DNA of 32,000 nucleotides from NCBI GenBank assembly GCA_016700015.1, contig CP064995.1:90001-122000 (forward strand), read 5' to 3'. This stretch comes from Candidatus Saccharimonadota bacterium. Its GTDB lineage: Bacteria; Patescibacteriota; Saccharimonadia; Saccharimonadales; Saccharimonadaceae. Below, in pieces: positions 3,022-29,896 of the stretch. The first letter of the stretch is position 1, and each line of letters starts with the position of its first letter. Both the position numbers and the translations under genes were made by a program. The notes under the pieces are model-generated. The model made no database searches. It saw nothing but the letters and a program-made list of their open reading frames with translations, and was not told the DNA's origin.

Positions 3022-3100
3022 AAAAAAACGCTCAATACTCGATTTTACTTCAATTTCCATCAGTTGGATAGAGCAAGCTGCGCTATTTTTCGCTGACGGC

Positions 3101-3121
3101 TCCCCAACTGAGCTACCGGGG
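3101..3121 (-). pseudogene. orphan copy of the 5' 19-21 nt of tRNA-Arg(TCT) (acceptor plus D-arm start)
   Basis: CCAACTGAGCTACCGGGGC at 3103-3121 is identical to 3003-3021. An inverted 15-nt D-arm copy CAGTTGGATAGAGCA lies at 3061-3075. No complete cloverleaf can be folded. Confidence 0.6.
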
Positions 3122-3141
3122 CATACCATCAGTATAACTGA

Positions 3142-15252: not shown

Positions 15253-15447
15253 ATAGCTATATTGTACGCTATATAGGACAATAAATTGCAGGTATGATAG
15301 GCAGGATATCGCTCATTTCACTCGCTCTTCCGCTCAGTCGCAAAAGAAAAGAACTTTTTTTGGCTTCCTTCGCTGCACCGAACTTACGACTACGATATTT
15401 TCCTACGGAAAATCTCTAGTCGTAGAACCGGACCCTGCGGAACGTAA

Positions 15448-17617: not shown

Positions 17618-17696
17618 AAGTTTCTATTGTATCAGATTTGACTCATCTTTACATGCTGGCCCCTGTTTGCTACAATGTACCGGTACTTTATAGGTA

Positions 17697-17723
17697 TGGG
17701 CCAATAGCTAGAGCTGGTTAGAG
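17697..17723 (+). pseudogene. partial tRNA-Lys-like 5' fragment (acceptor plus D arm), continued at 17811-17820 after the inserted RNA element
   Basis: GGGCCAATAGCTAGAGCTGGTTAGAG compared with the intact GGGCCAGTAGCTCAGCTGGTTAGAG. After the element, CCTGCCTCTT matches the anticodon stem and loop 5' side of tRNA-Lys(CTT). No 3' half is present. Confidence 0.7.
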
Positions 17724-17810
17724 TGAGAACTGCCAGTTGGCAGTTCGCAAGGCGATGTCACAAATGAACTATGTTCATTTGCCTGACTCGCGGGGTCGCG
17801 CTGGTGTGAC
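17724..17810 (+). ncRNA. unclassified ~87-nt structured RNA element, copy L (three-hairpin fold)
   Basis: TGAGA-P1(ACTGCC/GGCAGT)-TCGCAAG-P2(GCGA.GTCA.CAAATGAAC-TAT-GTTCATTTG.TGAC.TCGC)-GGGG-P3(TCGC/GTGA). It is homologous to the copies at 23806, 29392 and 29699, with compensatory substitutions. Confidence 0.7.
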
Positions 17811-17873
17811 CCTGCCTCTTCCGAGCTTTGCTCGGCTGCGTGCACGCGTACCTTCCGGTATACTACAACTCAT

Positions 17874-17950
17874 GGGCCAGTAGCTCAGCTGGTTAGAGCA
17901 CCTGCCTCTTAAGCAGGGTGTCGAGAGTTCAAGTCTCTCCTGGCCCTCCA
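17874..17950 (+). tRNA. tRNA-Lys (anticodon CTT), CCA encoded
   Basis: Acceptor GGGCCAG/CTGGCCC, anticodon stem-loop CCTGC-CTCTTAA-GCAGG, T arm GAGAG-TTCAAGT-CTCTC, then T73 and CCA. Confidence 0.9.
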
Positions 17951-17993
17951 AGTAAAAATAGTCTCGTTGCAAAATGAGGCTATTTTTACTTGG
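17948..17993 (+). terminator. 18-bp hairpin starting at the CCA of tRNA-Lys
   Basis: CCAAGTAAAAATAGTCTC-(10-nt loop)-GAGGCTATTTTTACTTGG, with one G-U pair. No U-tract. Confidence 0.55.
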
Positions 17994-18006
17994 CCAAGGT
18001 TAGAGA

Positions 18007-18130
18007 TGAGACTTGTACTCTCGACTTTTTGCGAAGCAAAAATAGTCGAGAGGTCGCAAAGCGCAGCGAAATTCTGGAAAAGCTTGCTTTTGGCAGAATG
18101 AGCAAGCGGAGGAGCGAAGCGATAGTCTCT
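18007..18130 (+). repeat. divergent, enlarged relative of the structured RNA element, preceded by a GGCCAAGGTTAGAG tRNA-Lys-like remnant
   Basis: TGAGA, then a long P1 (CTCTCGACT...AGTCGAGAG), then GTCGCAAAG (compare TCGCAAG), then an ATTCTG..CAGAAT hairpin, then GCGGAGG. The 5' GAGACT can pair with the 3' AGTCTC. The match to the family is partial. Confidence 0.4.
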
Positions 18131-18148
18131 CTTAGCCCTTCCCACAAT

Positions 18149-18178
18149 AAAATGCCGACTTGCGACAGTCGGCATTTT
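18149..18178. terminator. bidirectional intrinsic terminator
   Basis: AAAATGCCGACT-TGCGAC-AGTCGGCATTTT. A GC-rich core stem is flanked by A- and T-tracts, and it lies between + strand RNAs and the minus-strand operon ending at 18197. Confidence 0.75.
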
Positions 18179-23694: not shown

Positions 23695-23805
23695 TATGGG
23701 TTCTGAAACTGACGCTTCAGATAATCATCGGCACTTGCGCGCCATCCCTCCCTCTTTAGGGGGAGGAAGATTGCATTCGAATTCACTTCGAATCAAGCTG
23801 GAGGG

Positions 23806-23891
23806 TGAGGGCTGCCCGTCGGCAGGCCGCAAGGAAGTCTGCCGGATAAGCTATGCTTATCACGAGCAGCTTCGGGGCCGCGGGACGTGGC
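23806..23891 (+). ncRNA. unclassified ~86-nt structured RNA element, copy E5
   Basis: TGAGG-P1(CTGCC/GGCAG)-CCGCAAG-P2(GAAG.CTGC.GATAAGC-TAT-GCTTATC.GCAG.CTTC)-GGGG-P3(CCGCG-GGA-CGTGG). The flanks GGAGGG/CCCTCC can form a closing stem. It lies between convergent genes. Confidence 0.7.
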
Positions 23892-23925
23892 GTGGTCCCT
23901 CCTATAAAGGAGCGGTCAGTCTCGA

Positions 23926-25521
23926 TTAGTTTTGCGTGAGCTTGCGGCTTGCTATGTAATAGCTTACTGCAGCTGCTAGTGAGCTAAGTCCAAGGATGTT
24001 CATAACACCATCTACAATACCGGTGTGCGGAAGCTCATTCGGAGTAGTTGTAGTGGTCTTACAGTCAGGACTATTTTTTGGCAGAGATTCTTTACCAGGA
24101 ACCGTACAGTATTCGACTGGTTTGTCACACTTGCTCTTGTCGAGCGTGTAGTGGACATTGTCAATCTTTGACTTCTCAACTGTCTCGATTTTCTTTGTAT
24201 CAAGGTTACAAGCCTCTACCATTTCTGGCTTTGCTGCACACTTTGACAAATCTTTCGAGTACTTGGTGCTGTCAAATGTTGTTTCATCGATACGAACAAT
24301 CTTTTTGTCGCTCAGGCGGCAAACGTCGATCATAACTACTGGTGGATGGCAGTTAGCGGTATCTTTCGAGTACTTGCTAGTGTCAAAATCTTTTTCGTCA
24401 ATACGAACTATTTTCCAGTCGCTGAGTCGACAAACGTCGATGAGCTTTGGCTCAACACAGGTTTTGGTCGCTACTACATTGGCAGTATCAGACTTGTTAC
24501 CAGAGTTGGTCGTTGCAGTCGCAGTGTTGACAAGGGTGTTTTCACCACATTTGTCGAGCTGGTCGTTGGCTTTTACCTTGGCGGCAAATTTGATGTACAC
24601 GTCACCCTGTGGCAGGTAGCTGCCCATGGTCATACCACCAACAGTTACGCCGTCGGCAACCTTGCGGGTGCCAAGTGAATCGTGGACGTAGGTAGTGCCA
24701 GGAACGTATTCCATGTCGGCAGGGAGTACGTCTTTGATGGTGACATTGGTTTGGTTGGTACCACCAGTATTTTTGAAGTACAGTTGGTACTCAACAGTGT
24801 CGCCAGGGTTAGCAGCGACACTTTCGGTGAATGCACCGGTGCTGCCTTTGCGAACTGTTTTGACAAGGTTGAAGTCAGTTGTGGTGGCTTTGACCTTGAG
24901 GTAGACGACACCACTGTACTGGAAACAACCAGGGATGTTGCCATCCATTGCGTTGTAGCCAAGCTTTGCACCGCCGCTGACAATACTATCAGCTACGGGC
25001 GTGCCACTGGTGAATACTGCATTTTTGTAGAATGCAGAACCGGCGACGTAGCTTAGGTTAAATTTGGTACCGTTGGCACCATGGAATACGGCCTGGTCCC
25101 ACACGCTGGTAGGGTTGGCGTTGCTTGCATTTACATAGCCGTCGATCTGAATACGATCAGCGGTTTGGGTTGGTACGTTTAGCTTTGCTACCACGTCCCG
25201 AGCCACAAGGTTCAGGTTGCTAGCAGCATTGTTGTGTACATAAATGCGCACACTGTATTCTTTTCCGTTTTCTACGGTTACGTCGTCGGTATATTTGCCG
25301 TCGGCTCCCTGGATCATAACGAAGTTTCGTTCGTCACCATAGTTGGTAGCATCGGTAATACTGTTGAATGTTATGTATGGCGCAGGATTGGCCATGGTAA
25401 ATGTTGGGCGACTAGGTCCCCATGCGAGCAAGCCCGCGGGTACAGCGACTACAGCGAATGCCAGGGCGGCAACGGCTGCAGCGCGTGTGTTGACCTTGCG
25501 CACTAGTTGTGCAAATGTCAT
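23926..25521 (-). CDS. sortase-anchored surface protein (LPHTG sorting signal) with a DUF11-like repeat domain and Cys-containing tandem repeats
   Basis: Signal/TM at the N-terminus. PGDTVEYQLYFKNTGGTNQTNVTIKDVLPADMEYVPGT is DUF11-like. The C-terminus is ELPHTG, then a hydrophobic stretch, then SRKLTQN. Confidence 0.85.
   Translation of the reverse strand: MTFAQLVRKVNTRAAAVAALAFAVVAVPAGLLAWGPSRPTFTMANPAPYITFNSITDATNYGDERNFVMIQGADGKYTDDVTVENGKEYSVRIYVHNNAASNLNLVARDVVAKLNVPTQTADRIQIDGYVNASNANPTSVWDQAVFHGANGTKFNLSYVAGSAFYKNAVFTSGTPVADSIVSGGAKLGYNAMDGNIPGCFQYSGVVYLKVKATTTDFNLVKTVRKGSTGAFTESVAANPGDTVEYQLYFKNTGGTNQTNVTIKDVLPADMEYVPGTTYVHDSLGTRKVADGVTVGGMTMGSYLPQGDVYIKFAAKVKANDQLDKCGENTLVNTATATTNSGNKSDTANVVATKTCVEPKLIDVCRLSDWKIVRIDEKDFDTSKYSKDTANCHPPVVMIDVCRLSDKKIVRIDETTFDSTKYSKDLSKCAAKPEMVEACNLDTKKIETVEKSKIDNVHYTLDKSKCDKPVEYCTVPGKESLPKNSPDCKTTTTTPNELPHTGIVDGVMNILGLSSLAAAVSYYIASRKLTQN
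24112..24444 (-). repeat. three tandem 111-nt (37-aa) repeats inside the surface-protein gene
   Basis: The units are LIDVCRLSDWKIVRIDEKDFDTSKYSKDTANC, MIDVCRLSDKKIVRIDETTFDSTKYSKDLSKC and MVEACNLDTKKIETVEKSKIDNVHYTLDKSKC. They start at 24444, 24333 and 24222. Confidence 0.8.
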
Positions 25522-25763
25522 ATTGCGTATCTCCTTCCATATAAATGGATTGGTTAGTTAGGGGTATCTGCTTCATGAATGTTCGTACGGCTCGTCCCCG
25601 GTTGCGGGGGCGAGTAATGTTACACGCAAAACTAATTGTGAATGTACGGTCATACATGGAGCGTATGCCAATCAGACTATGCCTTATGGTGCTAAAGTGT
25701 GTGCCCGGGGGCACCCATCCGCCAGTTGGCGGACAGGTGCCCCACGGTGGTAGTAGGAACTTA

Positions 25764-27491
25764 TTAGTTGCCGCCCCAGATGTCGTCGCCACCCTGGTTG
25801 CCACCGTCGCCGGTGGGTGAGCCAGAGGATTGGCCGCCAGAGTTTCCACCCTGGCCACTGTCGGTGCTAGCACCGCCAGTGGACTGGTTGGCTTGCTCCT
25901 CGGCGGCCTTGGCGTCAGCCGCGGCCTTGTCGGCAGCGGCCTTGGCATCGGCAGCTGGGTCATTCTGCAGACCCCGGCTGTCGGTGGCGCCATTGTTGCC
26001 ATTGACGCCTCCGCTGCCGCCTTCACCCGGGTTGAGACCCAGGTCGCTGCCCATCTTGGAGCAGTTGCCTGCCGAGTTCGGCTTCGGGTACTTGCCGGCT
26101 TCGGTGGGCAGGACCCAGATGATCTTGGTCCCGTCGAGGGTGCACACGGGCACCTTCTTCGGCAGCGGGTGCTTGTTCCAGCACCCGTTGGCAATCGGCT
26201 GACTGGCACGGTCACTTCCCACGGGGCACACCTTGGGGGTGTGGCCCACCGGGTAGGGCGTCACGCTGGTGTGCGGGTTTCGACACGCCGCACGGGTGGA
26301 CGCCGCCATGTAAACGGTACCGTCCGGGCCAACCGGGGTCCACCAGACGTCACCGACGTCGTGGCACACCTCGTGGTCAACTTGGACAGACTTGCCGTCC
26401 ACCAGCGACCAGTTGCCGATCGTACACGACTTCTCCATCGCCTGCCAGGGGACAAGCCCCTTGCCACTCAGGAAGCGGTCGTGTAGCTCGGTCGGCGTGC
26501 GGTCGAGCAGGTTTTGCCGTGCCGCAGCCCCAGCGGGCGAGTTGATGTACTCGACCCACATGGTCTGCGAGCGCAGCGTCTGCTGTCCGAACGCACCCGC
26601 GTAGCGCTGGTTGGCACCTGGAAGTGTCCAATCGACGTTGTTGCCGATGCGGACGTTGGTGTAGCCCGCCTTCGCGAAGGCGTCCGCCAGGGCCTTGGCC
26701 ATGGCGTCGGTGTCCGCGTCAGCAGGGATAGCCACCACACCAGCCTTGAGCATTGCTGCCCACTGCTTGGTGTCGGAGCTCTGCAGGGCCGTGATGGTCT
26801 TGTCCTGCTCGGCGTTTTTCTGCTCAAGGGCGTCGATCTTCGCGCAGGGCAGCGAGTTGGCCGGGATGGCGCAATACGCAGCCCAGCTGTCCGGGTTGAG
26901 CTTCATCCCGTCCAGCTCGGTCTTGATCTTCGCCTCGAGCGCATCCGTGTAGGCCTTCGCCTGAGCGTTGGCCTGCTCGATGGCAGCGGTCACGCCGAGT
27001 CGATCTTGGATGGTTCGACCATCGATCGTGTTGACGGCGACCGTCGCGCCTGCGAGCAGGGCGACGAGCGTGCCGGCAGCGAACCATCGGTAGCCTCGCA
27101 CTCGGTTGACCTGCAACCGCCGCTGCTGGGCACTGAACATCAGCGCCAGCAGGACACCCACCGCGACAAGCGCGAGGGCAGTCCAGCTGAAGCCGAGCAG
27201 CAGCCAGAGCAGCCACGTGAAGCTGAGCACTCCGAGTGCCGACCAGCGACTCGAGCCGGTGCTGATGCCTGCACCGATGAAGGCGAAGGTCAGCACCGCG
27301 GCCACGAGCGGCCAGTTGGCGCTCAGCGTGATCGGCGGCAGGACGAACCCAGTCACCTGGGCCCATCCCACGAAGCCGATGCCCGCTGCGCCGAGCAGCG
27401 CAAAGATCACGCGCTCGGGGGTAGACGATGTTGCACGAATAGCGGCGACCAACAGGCCAACCGCCATGAGCAGGATGATGACGTTGGTCAT
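25764..27491 (-). CDS. hypothetical polytopic membrane protein with a coiled-coil, a Cys-rich extracytoplasmic domain and a Gly/Ser/Asn-rich tail (GC-rich island)
   Basis: I chose this frame for its G/C-rich third positions and the AAGGAG 6 nt upstream of the ATG at 27491. It has 4-5 N-terminal TM helices, an Ala/Lys-rich helical region, and multiple Cys in the distal domain. No family recognised. Confidence 0.7.
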   Translation of the reverse strand: MTNVIILLMAVGLLVAAIRATSSTPERVIFALLGAAGIGFVGWAQVTGFVLPPITLSANWPLVAAVLTFAFIGAGISTGSSRWSALGVLSFTWLLWLLLGFSWTALALVAVGVLLALMFSAQQRRLQVNRVRGYRWFAAGTLVALLAGATVAVNTIDGRTIQDRLGVTAAIEQANAQAKAYTDALEAKIKTELDGMKLNPDSWAAYCAIPANSLPCAKIDALEQKNAEQDKTITALQSSDTKQWAAMLKAGVVAIPADADTDAMAKALADAFAKAGYTNVRIGNNVDWTLPGANQRYAGAFGQQTLRSQTMWVEYINSPAGAAARQNLLDRTPTELHDRFLSGKGLVPWQAMEKSCTIGNWSLVDGKSVQVDHEVCHDVGDVWWTPVGPDGTVYMAASTRAACRNPHTSVTPYPVGHTPKVCPVGSDRASQPIANGCWNKHPLPKKVPVCTLDGTKIIWVLPTEAGKYPKPNSAGNCSKMGSDLGLNPGEGGSGGVNGNNGATDSRGLQNDPAADAKAAADKAAADAKAAEEQANQSTGGASTDSGQGGNSGGQSSGSPTGDGGNQGGDDIWGGN

Positions 27492-27522
27492 CTTTGTCTC
27501 CTTTTTGGCTGGTAGTTGTTGG

Positions 27523-28008
27523 TCAGCGGCCGTTCATGAACCGAACGAACCGCTTCACGGCACCGTCGCCGCGGGAGCGGCTGGGGGCCTTGAGCTGGTC
27601 GACGTCGGCGCGCAGTTCTCCGAGCGCCGTCCCGAGCGACCTGACCATTCCCACGTTTGCGGGAGCGGAGAGATCCGGGGGCGCGTCGAATGGACTGCCG
27701 GTCGACGAGGTTGCCGGCGGCGGAGTGGTGCCGAACGCGGCCTCGTACTCGTCGTAGGACGGGAAGTCCGGCGACAAGGCCGGCGCCAAGCAAGTGCTGG
27801 CGCTGTGGCGCGCGACGCTGTCCACCTTGGCTGCCAGCAAGTCCTTCTCGGGACTGGCCGGCAGGCCGGCGAGGTCGTCGTACACCTGCTTGAGCAGGCG
27901 CGTTCCGCGCCCGGCCCAAGCGATGGTGGTACCATCGGGGTAGAGTTGCTGCCCGCCATGCGAGAGCATAGCGTTCCAGCTGTCGAGGCTGGTGATGGAC
28001 TGGGTCAT
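27523..28008 (-). CDS. hypothetical protein (GC-rich island), probably co-transcribed with the 575-aa membrane protein
   Basis: The frame is GC3-rich. I preferred the start at 28008 (MTQSITSLDSW) because of the GAAGGGAAG SD. The listed start is 28023. Pro/Ala/Ser-rich linker. No family recognised. Confidence 0.6.
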   Translation of the reverse strand: MTQSITSLDSWNAMLSHGGQQLYPDGTTIAWAGRGTRLLKQVYDDLAGLPASPEKDLLAAKVDSVARHSASTCLAPALSPDFPSYDEYEAAFGTTPPPATSSTGSPFDAPPDLSAPANVGMVRSLGTALGELRADVDQLKAPSRSRGDGAVKRFVRFMNGR

Positions 28009-28524
28009 GGTTCTTCCCTTCATAGTTGCTGGGCGCGCACGATGCGCGCTCCATGGATGGAGCGCGCGAACGCGCCTGCCGTACGACTATTTCTGCAGTT
28101 GATAGTCGGCCGGTTGCACACGTAAATACGCGTACTCCTTGCCAACTACCAACACCGAGAAGCCGCACGGGTGAAGGGGATTCAAATAGTTCCATACTAC
28201 CTATGCTGCAAATGCAGCTATAGAGCCTTGACTGTCGCCGCTTCAAGACTCTGTAGCTACACTTGCAGATTTAGCAATAAGGTATAGCCTGATTGTCAAT
28301 GATCCCATTTCGGATGAGTGGCTTCCACCTCACTCACCGTGACTTACACAGTTTATCACAAAACACTAAAAAAGTCAATATATATCACCATAAAAAACAT
28401 AAACATTACAATAGTTGCCAACAGGGGTAGCATGTGAATTATATTACTGTTTTTGTACAATTTGTGTTAATCTAGCATAGTATCGTACTTTTCACTACCC
28501 AATTTCTGCAATCAGGAGGCGGCT

Positions 28525-29277
28525 TTGGCATCACGGAAGCTCCACCTTGATCCATGGGTGTACGGTGACGACGAAACGCGGCGCGTAGGGGTGGTACCAA
28601 GTCGAATACTTCGAGAGCGCATCCTGATGCGTCAGGTTACGCTGGAAGAACTGTTTGTGAATGGCCGTAATGAGCACATACCGGGTGAGTATCTGGAGCG
28701 GATGCGGGCCAGAGCACGCTACCGGATTGTACGAGCGTTTGCCGACGCAGTTGATGAGCGGCAGCGCCCCACTGACAACTTCATCACAGGGAGCTTTAGC
28801 GCTGGCTATCCTCGTCGCTGGGCGCCAGTAGGCGACAGTCTGGACGAGCTATGGCGAGCGGTGTGCCGGATTACGCGGCGAATGCGTCCCGTGGTGCAGC
28901 CCGATCACTTGCCGGAGCCCTACCGGTCGCTTGAAGATCACTGGCGAGACGCCGTGTGTCAGCAGGCAAGTTACATGCTGGGCACACAGGAACTCACGGA
29001 GCTTTTGGCACACGAGCGACGCACGGAGGATGGTCGGCAAGATCATGCCGAGCGCACCCTGTGGTACCACGCAGGTGATGGCACCTGGCAGGCCAGCCAG
29101 TCGCTGATTGACCAGACTGACGAACTGCGACGGCGGAGCGCCAACCGCTCCCAGCCGCGCCCACGCCAGTCTGGCAAGCAAGACCAGCGCAATTGGCATG
29201 GTCGTCCCTCGAAGCAGGGTCGACGCCGTGCCAAGCAGGCAGGTAACCCCGGATCATCGATTGGTGGTGTGCGGTAG
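28525..29277 (+). CDS. hypothetical Arg-rich protein with a strongly basic C-terminal tail (GC-rich island)
   Basis: TTG start with AGGAGG 6 nt upstream, followed by a strong terminator. No family recognised. The C-terminus is RRSANRSQPRPRQSGKQDQRNWHGRPSKQGRRRAKQ. Confidence 0.6.
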   Translation: MASRKLHLDPWVYGDDETRRVGVVPSRILRERILMRQVTLEELFVNGRNEHIPGEYLERMRARARYRIVRAFADAVDERQRPTDNFITGSFSAGYPRRWAPVGDSLDELWRAVCRITRRMRPVVQPDHLPEPYRSLEDHWRDAVCQQASYMLGTQELTELLAHERRTEDGRQDHAERTLWYHAGDGTWQASQSLIDQTDELRRRSANRSQPRPRQSGKQDQRNWHGRPSKQGRRRAKQAGNPGSSIGGVR

Positions 29278-29287
29278 TGAAGTAATG

Positions 29288-29325
29288 GGGGTGGAGTGTG
29301 ACGTAAGTTACACTCCACCCCTTTT
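29288..29325 (+). terminator. intrinsic terminator at the right edge of the island
   Basis: GGGGTGGAGTGT-(10-nt loop)-ACACTCCACCCC, followed by TTTT. Confidence 0.8.
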
Positions 29326-29350
29326 CAAATGCCAACAATATTGGTATAAT
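29322..29350 (+). promoter_or_regulatory. promoter reading into the tRNA-Glu fragment and RNA element (TTTTCA-17 nt-TATAAT with TG extension)
   Basis: Consensus TATAAT at 29345-29350 with TG at 29342-29343. The fragment starts 25 nt downstream of the -10. Confidence 0.5.
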
Positions 29351-29374
29351 CGGCGAAGCTCTTTTAATTTATAC

Positions 29375-29391
29375 GGTCCCATCGTCTAACG
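29375..29391 (+). pseudogene. partial tRNA-Glu 5' fragment, continued at 29479-29496 after the inserted RNA element
   Basis: GGTCCCATCGTCTAACG is identical to the first 17 nt of the intact tRNA-Glu. After the element, TAGGATACCAGGCTGTCC corresponds to TAGGACACCAGGTTTTCA in the intact gene. No anticodon-stem closure or 3' half is present. Confidence 0.75.
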
Positions 29392-29478
29392 TGAGAGCCG
29401 CCAGTGGCGGGTCGCAAGGGAGTCCACTCTTGAAAGCTATGCTTTCAAAGATGTGGCGACGGGGTCGCGGAACGTGAC
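29392..29478 (+). ncRNA. unclassified ~87-nt structured RNA element, copy G1 (in the D-loop of the tRNA-Glu fragment)
   Basis: TGAGA-P1(CCGCC/GGCGG)-TCGCAAG-P2(GGAG.CCAC.TCTTGAAAGC-TAT-GCTTTCAAAGA.GTGG.CGAC)-GGGG-P3(TCGCG-GAA-CGTGA). Confidence 0.7.
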
Positions 29479-29547
29479 TAGGATACCAGGCTGTCCGTCG
29501 CTCTTGCTCTACAAATACACGCACCTTTCGTTTACACTAATCTATAT

Positions 29548-29622
29548 GGTCCCATCGTCTAACGGTTAGGACACCAGGTTTTCATCCTGGCAATCCGGGT
29601 TCGATTCCCGGTGGGATCACCA
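29548..29622 (+). tRNA. tRNA-Glu (anticodon TTC), CCA encoded
   Basis: Acceptor GGTCCCA/TGGGATC, anticodon stem-loop CCAGG-TTTTCAT-CCTGG, T arm CCGGG-TTCGATT-CCCGG, then ACCA. Confidence 0.9.
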
Positions 29623-29663
29623 CGTAAGCGCCCCTGTTTTTACAGGGGTGTTTGCGTGGTGAT
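29616..29663 (+). terminator. two-tier hairpin incorporating the acceptor 3' strand and CCA of tRNA-Glu
   Basis: Outer stem ATCACCACG/CGTGGTGAT (9 bp) and inner stem CCCCTGT/ACAGGGG (7 bp) around a TTTT loop. Confidence 0.55.
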
Positions 29664-29689
29664 ACTTTCTGGTAATTGCCCGGATTGCC

Positions 29690-29797
29690 CAATCCGGGTG
29701 AGAAGTGACGGGCGTCACTTCGCAAGGCGATGCCGCACGTGAGCTATGCTCACGAGACCGGCTCGCGGGGTCGCCAGAGGTGACCGATTCCCGGTGG
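29690..29797 (+). pseudogene. partial tRNA-Glu 3' fragment (variable region plus T arm) split in the T-loop by RNA element copy G2
   Basis: CAATCCGGG (29690-29698) and CGATTCCCGGTGG (29785-29797) together reproduce CAATCCGGGTTCGATTCCCGGTGG of the intact gene, minus the two T-loop Ts. Confidence 0.7.
29699..29784 (+). ncRNA. unclassified ~86-nt structured RNA element, copy G2
   Basis: TGAGA-P1(AGTGAC/GTCACT)-TCGCAAG-P2(GCGA.GCCG.CGTGAGC-TAT-GCTCACG.CGGC.TCGC)-GGGG-P3(TCGCC-AGA-GGTGA). Confidence 0.7.
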
Positions 29798-29896
29798 TTT
29801 ATAAAATCAGATTTTTCGCCTCTGTTAAGGATCAGATCTTTCGTTTTTGTGCATACGGTGGGAGTGGAGCACAGATGATTACTTAAAGTTATAAAT

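Follow-up and report, generated by a model that had tools for sequence, protein, structure and literature searches.

Background

The R2 and R1 retrotransposons, which are site-specific and of the non-LTR kind (they lack long terminal repeats), target conserved structural-RNA genes, are co-transcribed with the host gene, and include non-autonomous copies; their structured RNA ends are bound by the enzyme. To our knowledge, they have no known counterpart in bacteria. They are used here as one of the nearest comparisons for element E, a family of short structured sequences present in a 32,000-nucleotide (nt) stretch of a Candidatus Saccharimonadota bacterium (assembly GCA_016700015.1, contig CP064995.1, positions 90,001 to 122,000, forward strand), which is referred to as the window. 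Saccharibacteria have streamlined genomes of about 1 Mb. The window carries seven tRNA genes and four copies of E, each of about 86 nt, all on the + strand and with a common three-hairpin fold. About half of the tRNA genes carry units of E or of a second, unrelated family, designated F. Loci from other genomes are cited by number (L003 and so on).

Several other kinds of sequence bear comparison with E. Archaea (Thermoproteales, Nanoarchaeum) have split tRNA genes and tRNA introns that have transposed, with short related insertions at many non-canonical positions, including the D- and T-loops; similar sequences in different tRNA genes suggest movement, and genomic tRNA fragments occur. Class C group II introns, which insert after terminators, and IS1397, which inserts in the loops of repetitive extragenic palindromic (REP) sequences, use stem-loop targets in an oriented manner and occupy dispensable intergenic hairpins. 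Miniature inverted-repeat transposable elements (MITEs), REP sequences and bacterial interspersed mosaic elements (BIMEs), Rickettsia palindromic elements, and integron attC sites are about 100 nt long, have no open reading frame (ORF), occur in many copies, and preserve structure over sequence. Group I introns have a P3-P9 core of about 200 nt or more, with a 5' exon that ends in U and an intron that ends in G.

Structure and covariation of element E

A covariance model (CM) was built from the four window copies, which a first-pass annotation had located from the sequence letters alone. The model recovered the same four intervals with scores of 86 to 101.5 bits (E-values of 1e-15 to 1e-18), and the next-best match in the window reached only 16 bits. 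The copies are as follows.

17724..17810, + strand: E copy L, subfamily III, replacing CA (26-27) of a tRNA-Lys copy; CM score 93.9 bits
23806..23891, + strand: E copy X, in the loop of a hairpin GGAGGG...CCCTCC; CM score 100.4 bits
29392..29478, + strand: E copy G1, subfamily II, replacing GT of a D-loop; CM score 86.0 bits
29699..29784, + strand: E copy G2, replacing TT (54-55) of a T-loop copy; CM score 101.5 bits

In each copy TGAG(A/G) is followed by P1, YCGCAAGG, a long P2, GGGG, P3, and GTG(A/G)C. P2 contains a bulged pyrimidine and a small apical loop, which is UAU in all four window copies. This is the arrangement of joints and helices that was described at first, and it agrees with the RNAalifold analysis of the four copies, in which 18 of 31 pairs had compensatory changes on both sides. 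Across the family the length ranges from 81 to 90 nt and the final base is C. When 90 copies from other genomes were aligned to the model, 97.0% of pair cells held a standard pair and both-side changes were found in 25 of the 30 pairs (583 cells). These values were matched by none of 500 shuffles, and sliding the partners by 1-3 columns left 30-52% paired. The earlier observation that the helices vary in sequence while staying paired is borne out by these counts. One G.U pair in P3 was retained in 89 of the 90 copies, and the other pairs included 26 G.U against 12 A.C; the excess of G.U over A.C and the retained G.U pair indicate that it is the tRNA-sense strand whose structure is under selection. 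In this set of copies TGAG, CGCAAGG, GGGGYCGC, and GTGRC are invariant partly by construction, since these bases were in the exact search pattern.

Comparison of the window with Rfam 15 at the gathering score returned tRNA alone. With relaxed thresholds (E<=10 for 29300-29850 and E<=5 for 17690-18160) nothing convincingly covered the E or F copies, and scans of the window, the E and F regions, and the orphan loci turned up only tRNA, RNase P, and lysM-TM7. The failure of the first-pass annotation to match E to any motif familiar to it was repeated at both the gathering score and E<=10, a negative that bears on known ribozyme classes only. Full-text searches of the literature gave no description of E. 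E is a real, strongly covarying family of structured elements that is absent from Rfam.

Distribution and host context

The exact joint pattern of E was searched in a collection holding one genome per species, and the figures given below hold among the matches listed. At least 120 matching stretches, and in fact more, were obtained, nearly all in metagenome-assembled genomes (MAGs) of Saccharibacteria/Saccharimonadales. Seven pattern matches were dropped as chance (five GC-rich ones in other phyla without model detection, and two by eye). E is present in at least 113 Saccharibacteria loci, the CM gave 90 matches from 81 sources, and 119 accepted copies form the base set for the context, flank, and repair counts. 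A phage origin was rejected, as no match to E was found in IMG/VR.

An intact tRNA gene lies on the same strand within 300 nt of E in 90 of the 119 copies, at a median distance of 71 nt. Of the others, 3 are beside a tRNA on the opposite strand, 16 are too near the end of the locus, and 10 have no nearby tRNA. The flanks of E are sense-strand partial copies of the adjoining intact tRNA, arranged in two ways. In a type B unit, 5' of the gene, a promoter and the 5' part of the tRNA precede E, and a few more tRNA bases separate it from the intact tRNA; a fold-back is often present, and many of the spacers before the intact tRNA contain a -10 box. In a type A unit, 3' of the gene, the intact tRNA and its terminator are followed by an antisense copy of the tRNA 3' part, which typically begins directly after the 3' arm of the terminator, and then by a sense T-stem, E, and tRNA positions 56-76 including CCA; in most cases another terminator-like hairpin comes last. 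In 17 type A T-loop units an antisense copy of the insertion site was found with at most 4 mismatches in 16 (the shuffled-query control had a mean of 7.4), and the AA opposite the replaced TT was kept in 18 of 18 well-matched antisense cases, one of which is type B. Whole type A units also occur in tandem arrays with a period of about 186-195 nt (L075:5813-6134, L114:36-316, and L052:1276-1549).

Hosts were repaired in silico by exchanging E for the missing 2 nt and were examined with ARAGORN. A complete tRNA across the junction was obtained for 5 of the 119 copies, and where these loci were inspected an intact gene stood alongside. With so few repairable hosts, E is no intron of functioning tRNA genes, and the term intron-like, offered in the first-pass annotation, is not supported in the sense of interrupting such genes.

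The tRNA-Glu and tRNA-Lys loci of the window and the host segment of copy X contain the following additional features.

29322..29350, + strand: promoter-like site (sigma-70-like TTTTCA-17-TATAAT with TG), reading into the G1 unit
29375..29391, + strand: sense copy of tRNA-Glu positions 1-17, with G at the end, 5' flank of G1
29479..29490, + strand: sense copy of tRNA-Glu positions 20-31, with one mismatch, then a short fold-back (TGTCC)
29548..29622, + strand: intact tRNA-Glu(UUC)
29617..29662, + strand: terminator-like hairpin, 3' arm continuing into the complement of the tRNA 3' end (TGGTGAT)
29679..29698, + strand: CCCGGATTG-CC-CAATCCGGG, antisense and sense copy of tRNA-Glu 44-52, 5' flank of G2
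29785..29797, + strand: 3' flank of G2, matching tRNA-Glu positions 55-67 in sense
17648..17676, + strand: promoter-like site directed into the L unit (TTTACA-17-TACAAT with TG)
17698..17723, + strand: diverged sense copy of tRNA-Lys positions 1-25, 5' of copy L
17811..17835, + strand: sense copy of tRNA-Lys 28-37, then a hairpin CCGAGC-TTT-GCTCGG; this flank is also in L123
17874..17950, + strand: intact tRNA-Lys(CUU)
23723..23908, + strand: hairpin-rich host segment of copy X, with T-arm-like sense and antisense pieces

The tRNA contexts originally assigned to three copies were recovered, with G1 at 17|20 and G2 at 52|55 of tRNA-Glu and L at 25|28 of tRNA-Lys, and the promoter noted as reading into G1 was found again at 29322-29350.

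Insertion rule

Both flanks could be placed on the adjoining tRNA in 65 cases, and in 60 of these E replaces exactly 2 nt of the tRNA. Among the five exceptions, at least two (L003 and L088) arose from the regular expression starting at an upstream TGAG, and a further one (L116) is a chimera joining a 25| and a |57 junction. Replacement occurs at six sites (17|20, 22|25, 25|28, 38|41, 46|49, and 54|57) and involves six kinds of dinucleotide: TT (37 cases), CG (9), GT (8), GA, AG, and CA. The base directly upstream of E (-1) is G in 116 of the 119 copies (97%) and the base directly downstream (+1) is C in 99 (83%), while positions -2 to -4 vary.

Evidence for probable mobility

In six loci a copy of E is nested within the P3 of another E, at GGG|GT|CGC. 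A single pseudo-tRNA holds two copies in L118 and in L102, and one is present within an antisense tRNA-Phe fragment. The subfamilies, which are distinguished by P2, are spread across different tRNA types and species, and the nearest relative of a copy had the same site label in 1 of 60 cases. Among orthologous units of tRNA-Gly-GCC at 25|28, ten of eleven aligned loci share the odd flank CCTTGCCAGGCCAAGG, and loci with this common flank carry different E subfamilies. The orthologous tRNA-Lys site holds an X-like E in L123 and a subfamily III copy in the window, and no match to E was found at the tRNA-Lys gene of L124.

Copy X gives the most direct sign of movement. It sits in a GC-rich hairpin loop with no tRNA beside it and is missing from L121 and L122. 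These contigs differ from the window at 3 positions in about 200 flanking nt, encode a FolD that is 99% identical, and keep the host segment without E, reading CTGGAGGGGTGGGCCCCTCC where the window reads CTGGAGGG[E]GTGGTCCCTCC. A third allele is represented by L129, in which the histidine kinase is identical and the whole hairpin-rich host segment of about 100 nt is missing; the segment is also missing from L124. E is thus gained or lost as a unit on the time scale of strains. Of the three explanations suggested in the first-pass annotation, an ORF-less mobile RNA that targets tRNA loops gives the best fit to the presence and absence of X, the nesting, the double insertions, and the subfamily exchanges.

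The host segment of X is itself polymorphic for insertion and deletion, with three allelic states among contigs that have nearly identical flanks (window 23723-23908 compared with L129:3687-3810 and L124:14378-14500). A separate strain-level breakpoint is located at tRNA-Glu, where L125:1960-2700 was compared with window 28900-29630. The downstream 285-amino-acid protein is identical in L125, the sequence upstream of tRNA-Glu is unrelated and G1 is missing, and the acceptor stem of the tRNA has a compensatory change of C4 to T and G to A. In L047, two 99%-identical copies of E stand 1.5 kb apart, and a composite transposon was considered and rejected for this locus, since the copies belong to a 235-nt segmental repeat that surrounds two small membrane-protein genes.

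Search for a partner gene

E holds no ORF. All-versus-all clustering of 1085 ORFs from 113 loci gave no recurrent transposase or reverse transcriptase, and the largest clusters near E were a histidine kinase and a response regulator, present through synteny in at most 11 of the 113 loci. An autonomous parent, in which the halves of E would enclose an ORF, was looked for and none was found.

Family F and other small insertions

Copies of F were located by BLAST and regular expression. The two window copies are as follows.

18057..18124, + strand: copy of F, not of E, within a T-arm copy that lies downstream of tRNA-Lys
15307..15378, - strand: copy of F within a T-loop copy (GTTCG|AA|TCC), downstream of tRNA-Arg(UCG)

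The interval 18007-18130 had been reported as a divergent copy of E, an assignment that must be withdrawn because the E model does not detect it and its core (18057-18124) is F. Rfam gave no match for the F copy at this locus. Homologues of F occur at L025:3660-3748, L028:264-350, and L051:330-410 (- strand). F consists of GCAGCGAAAUNCUGG, a hairpin, and CCAGNAUGAGCAAGCGRAGGAG; most copies continue with GAGCGAUA. Its hosts are T-loop copies 3' of intact tRNAs, and the three clearest examples stand after G57, with AA replaced. At these junctions F follows an "after G, minus two" pattern like that of E with an unrelated sequence, and by this pattern it would likewise be a small, ORF-less, non-autonomous mobile element.

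Other small insertions were noted. Upstream of tRNA-Arg(UCU), the window interval 3061-3122 (- strand) contains a copy of the first 19 nt, a 33-nt F-like remnant, and an antisense D-arm copy, and looks like a decayed type B unit. The RNase P RNA at L087:341-871 (class A, 237 bits) has about 209 nt where the model has 46, and the extra part holds the F-like words GAGCAAGC and GAGCGGAAAGGAGCG. Hairpins of 17-27 nt are present in the D-loop or T-loop of E-bearing pseudo-tRNAs at L016:4393-4410 and L087:3098-3125.

Comparison with known systems

The fixed target-site deletion of R1 and R2 is attributed to cleavage of the second strand upstream of the first nick, and deletions of 2 bp have been proposed for Bombyx R2 in vitro and of 9 bp for R1 (PMC2718515). 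The fixed-length deletion expected of R2-like, target-primed insertion is seen in E (2 nt in 60 of 65 cases), with copy X as a deviation (net +85 nt). However, R2 and R1 are eukaryotic, measure kilobases, encode a reverse transcriptase-endonuclease, and use one fixed site in working multicopy genes, which E does not. The comparison may indicate what E works like and is not a statement of membership.

The genes that archaeal tRNA introns interrupt are functional ones; a bulge-helix-bulge motif marks the intron boundaries, and the splicing endonuclease takes the intron out, whereas E is bacterial, has incomplete hosts and constant ends, and has removed 2 nt. An intron of this type was rejected because the host gene is otherwise complete in 5 of 119 copies only. 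The ends of E are locked in the covarying P1 and P3, with no obvious 3-nt bulges, although no dedicated bulge-helix-bulge search was made. Group I introns were rejected on length (81-90 nt against a core of about 200 nt), on the G at -1, on the final C, and on the incomplete hosts. Group II and III introns were rejected since domains V and VI are missing (P3 is paired throughout), Rfam gives no match, and the hosts are incomplete. With the flanking G counted, the ends of E read GUGAG...AC as in group II introns, which is a resemblance only, and nested copies recall twintrons.

Like class C group II introns and IS1397, E is inserted in an oriented manner into hairpins and its copies gather in dispensable ones. 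Unlike E, with its loss of 2 nt, those elements are 0.7-2 kb long, encode or derive from a reverse transcriptase or transposase, and insert exactly or with target duplication. E resembles the small structured repeats in being ORF-less, about 100 nt long, and able to occupy RNA genes; it differs from them in having a three-hairpin junction, conserved unpaired bases, extensive covariation, and one orientation relative to the host tRNA, and in having no terminal inverted repeats or target duplication. A MITE or other derivative of a DDE transposon was rejected because TGAG... and ...GTGAC are not inverted repeats and the target loses 2 nt with no duplication. A palindrome-associated transposable element (PATE) derived from IS200/IS605 was rejected because G at -1 alone is fixed and 2 nt are lost, though hairpins do stand near both ends of E. 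Integron attC was rejected since its boxes (RYYYAAC ... GTTRRRY) are missing from the E consensus and there is no cassette ORF; the likeness is confined to the "after G" junction.

A crossover of the serine-recombinase or integron type was set aside, as the core dinucleotide would remain at both junctions. Guides similar to H/ACA or bridge RNAs were excluded because both flanks of E are sense, and for IS110-type bridge RNA and tandem interspersed guide RNA (TIGR) the lack of a recurrent neighboring gene adds to the tRNA-sense flanks. TIGR guide RNAs are 36 nt long with box C/D-like repeats (PMC12045711). A kink-turn formed from the two ends of E was rejected, since P1 and P3 covary instead. 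Every testable defining feature of group I and II introns, archaeal tRNA introns, MITEs, PATEs, attC sites, and bridge or TIGR RNAs is thus absent from E.

Stability of E units

L006 and L018 have an orthologous type A unit with direct repeats of 63-64 nt, extending from tRNA position 56 to the end of the terminator, which are 100% identical within each species and different between species. This identity is a matter of concerted evolution and not of recency. The Lys and Arg loci have the same length in two other contigs bearing an identical neighboring protein, and the model score of G2 is unchanged (101.5 bits) at the matching position in L125 and L126.

Interpretation

The preferred reading, held with middling confidence, is that E is an ORF-less, non-autonomous mobile element confined to Saccharibacteria, whose movement in trans passes by way of a folded single-stranded intermediate, probably RNA. 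The active form would be single-stranded and of tRNA-sense polarity, in all likelihood RNA, with three hairpins around a conserved junction, and the fold would serve as a handle for a factor encoded elsewhere or be itself catalytic. New copies would enter directly 3' of a G, and usually before a C, in exposed hairpin loops or stem ends, above all T-arm-like hairpins, with a loss of exactly two target nucleotides as seen in old copies. A 2-nt loss with G on one side and C on the other is what would be expected to remain after two nicks staggered by 2 nt, as proposed in target-primed reverse transcription, and the 3'-OH ends of the target may be joined to E or prime its synthesis. Insertion in a working single-copy tRNA gene would be lethal, so that copies would persist in dispensable targets only, such as partial tRNA copies beside an intact gene, other copies of E, and stray hairpins. 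The units would be transcribed from their own or a tRNA promoter and so supply the mobile RNA; transcription is plausible in view of the promoter-like sites upstream of G1 and L and the terminator-like hairpins after type A units. A bolder form of this proposal, which must be called unlikely, is that E and F are the RNA moiety of a new bacterial copy-and-paste system that writes structured RNA into hairpin G|NN|C sites, by means of a trans-acting reverse transcriptase-nuclease or the RNA's own catalysis, with partial tRNA copies as safe landing pads.

A number of observations weigh against a mobile element. No enzyme, whether reverse transcriptase or nuclease, could be tied to E, and the 8 kb around the copies yielded no reverse transcriptase-endonuclease. 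E and F have no terminal sequence in common, so a single enzyme would have to read shape and not ends. At copy X, E plus GTGGT stands in the filled allele where the empty one has GTGGGC, a net difference of +85 nt that is not a clean 2-nt replacement, and the change cannot be polarized as gain or loss, since the entire host segment is missing from L129 and L124. Many units look old and stable, and that of tRNA-Gly-GCC keeps its peculiar flank across loci. The retention of units in spite of direct repeats argues for selection, that is, for a host function, and persistence of this kind is the main argument for one. Mobility alone does not account for host tRNA copies that are always partial, or for the antisense copy of the uninterrupted target in type A units; self-primed extension of a terminated pre-tRNA and template-switch replication each cover parts only of the fold-back antisense segments.

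A rival possibility, doubtful on balance, is that E units are domesticated, host-beneficial leader (type B) or trailer (type A) RNAs of tRNA loci. The sense tRNA copy interrupted by E would cage or compete with the antisense copy, and the unit could tune the folding, processing, or decay of the tRNA precursor with E as a putative sensor of a protein or ligand. The presence of E or F units at about half of the window tRNA genes is in keeping with such a role, as are the endurance of orthologous units across many species, the match of flanks and second terminators to the adjoining tRNA and terminator within each species, the antisense site copy kept in 17 type A units with the complement of the replaced dinucleotide in 18 of 18 cases, the promoter-like and terminator-like signals on the units, and the prediction that read-through transcripts form long alternative structures (z of about -8 to -9). 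Against this role, nested copies wreck the host E; nor does it agree with a copy X that is strain-variable in a non-tRNA context, with the absence of a unit at tRNA-His-GUG here against six loci that have one and at tRNA-Lys-CUU in L124, with the wide variation of insertion positions in the tRNA copy, or with two unrelated families and small hairpins filling the same kind of site. It is improbable that E is a putative self-cleaving and self-ligating or self-inserting ribozyme, which would cut at the G|U junction and at its 3' end and exchange itself for a dinucleotide in RNA loops, the products being fixed in DNA by a host reverse transcriptase. Its compact junction, with invariant unpaired purines (AAG, GGG) and a conserved A.G mismatch and G.U pair, would suit a catalytic RNA, as would the fixed 2-nt replacement in loops, and the tandem arrays with a period of about 190 nt recall rolling-circle products. 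The precise ends and the invariant G|U junction point the same way, but they come from pattern-selected copies, in which invariance is partly by construction. Against catalysis stand the Rfam scans, which gave no similarity to any ribozyme class even at E<=10, the copy in an antisense tRNA fragment, and the adherence of F to the same rule with a different sequence.

A structured repeat acting at the DNA level, in which the folded single-stranded top strand would be the substrate of a tyrosine or HUH enzyme as for attC, PATEs, and REP sequences, is rated lower still. It would need no reverse transcriptase and would agree with the strand-specific structure, the conserved helix bases, the insertion into hairpin loops on either strand (including the antisense tRNA fragment), and the breaking of assemblies at E copies (L121 ends inside G1). 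But a three-hairpin junction with unpaired purines and a G.U pair is more typical of RNA, terminal inverted repeats, target duplication, and a fixed 4-5-nt target are absent, a 2-nt target loss is foreign to those families, and no such enzyme gene lies near any copy of E. The third of the first-pass suggestions, that E is an RNA part of the recombination system that delivered the block of genes between X and G1, is scarcely credible, and so is an origin of E copies as att-site relics of that system. X and G1 do bracket 23926-29277, and tRNA-Glu is a strain-level breakpoint. The idea is contradicted by L121, which shares the gene block and the beginning of G1 with the window and yet is without X. 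Neither an integrase nor a recombinase turned up in the block, no recombinase or other protein family recurs near E, and more than a hundred tRNA loci that have no island carry E.

If E is a mobile structured RNA with precise 2-nt replacement, it would be a new class of bacterial mobile element and would point to an enzyme or ribozyme that writes RNA-shaped sequence into hairpins, an activity that could interest genome engineers. Such an element would also account for assembly breaks, such as the end of L121, and for pseudo-tRNA fragments in this lineage. If the units are functional instead, they would add a new layer of tRNA gene organization. On either reading the family merits a covariance model in public libraries.

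Additional observations

E is located at the tip of a hairpin CGGGG/CCCCG upstream of tRNA-Cys at L022:1697-1783 and L096:2415-2501. The host is a conserved, structured non-tRNA region closed by CTTAAACCC...GGGGGTTTAAG with no Rfam match; signal recognition particle (SRP) RNA was considered as the host and rejected, being without Rfam support. At L071:5587-5735 an orphan copy of E is adjoined by a lysM-TM7 RNA (RF03005, 88 bits). A motif GCACCTTYCG (or ACGCGTACCTTCCG) lies just 5' of the -10 box of intact tRNA genes at about 29523-29535 and 17848-17860 of the window. The same type of motif is found at L123:8582-8596 and in the L050 spacer, and it may be a lineage-specific tRNA promoter element.

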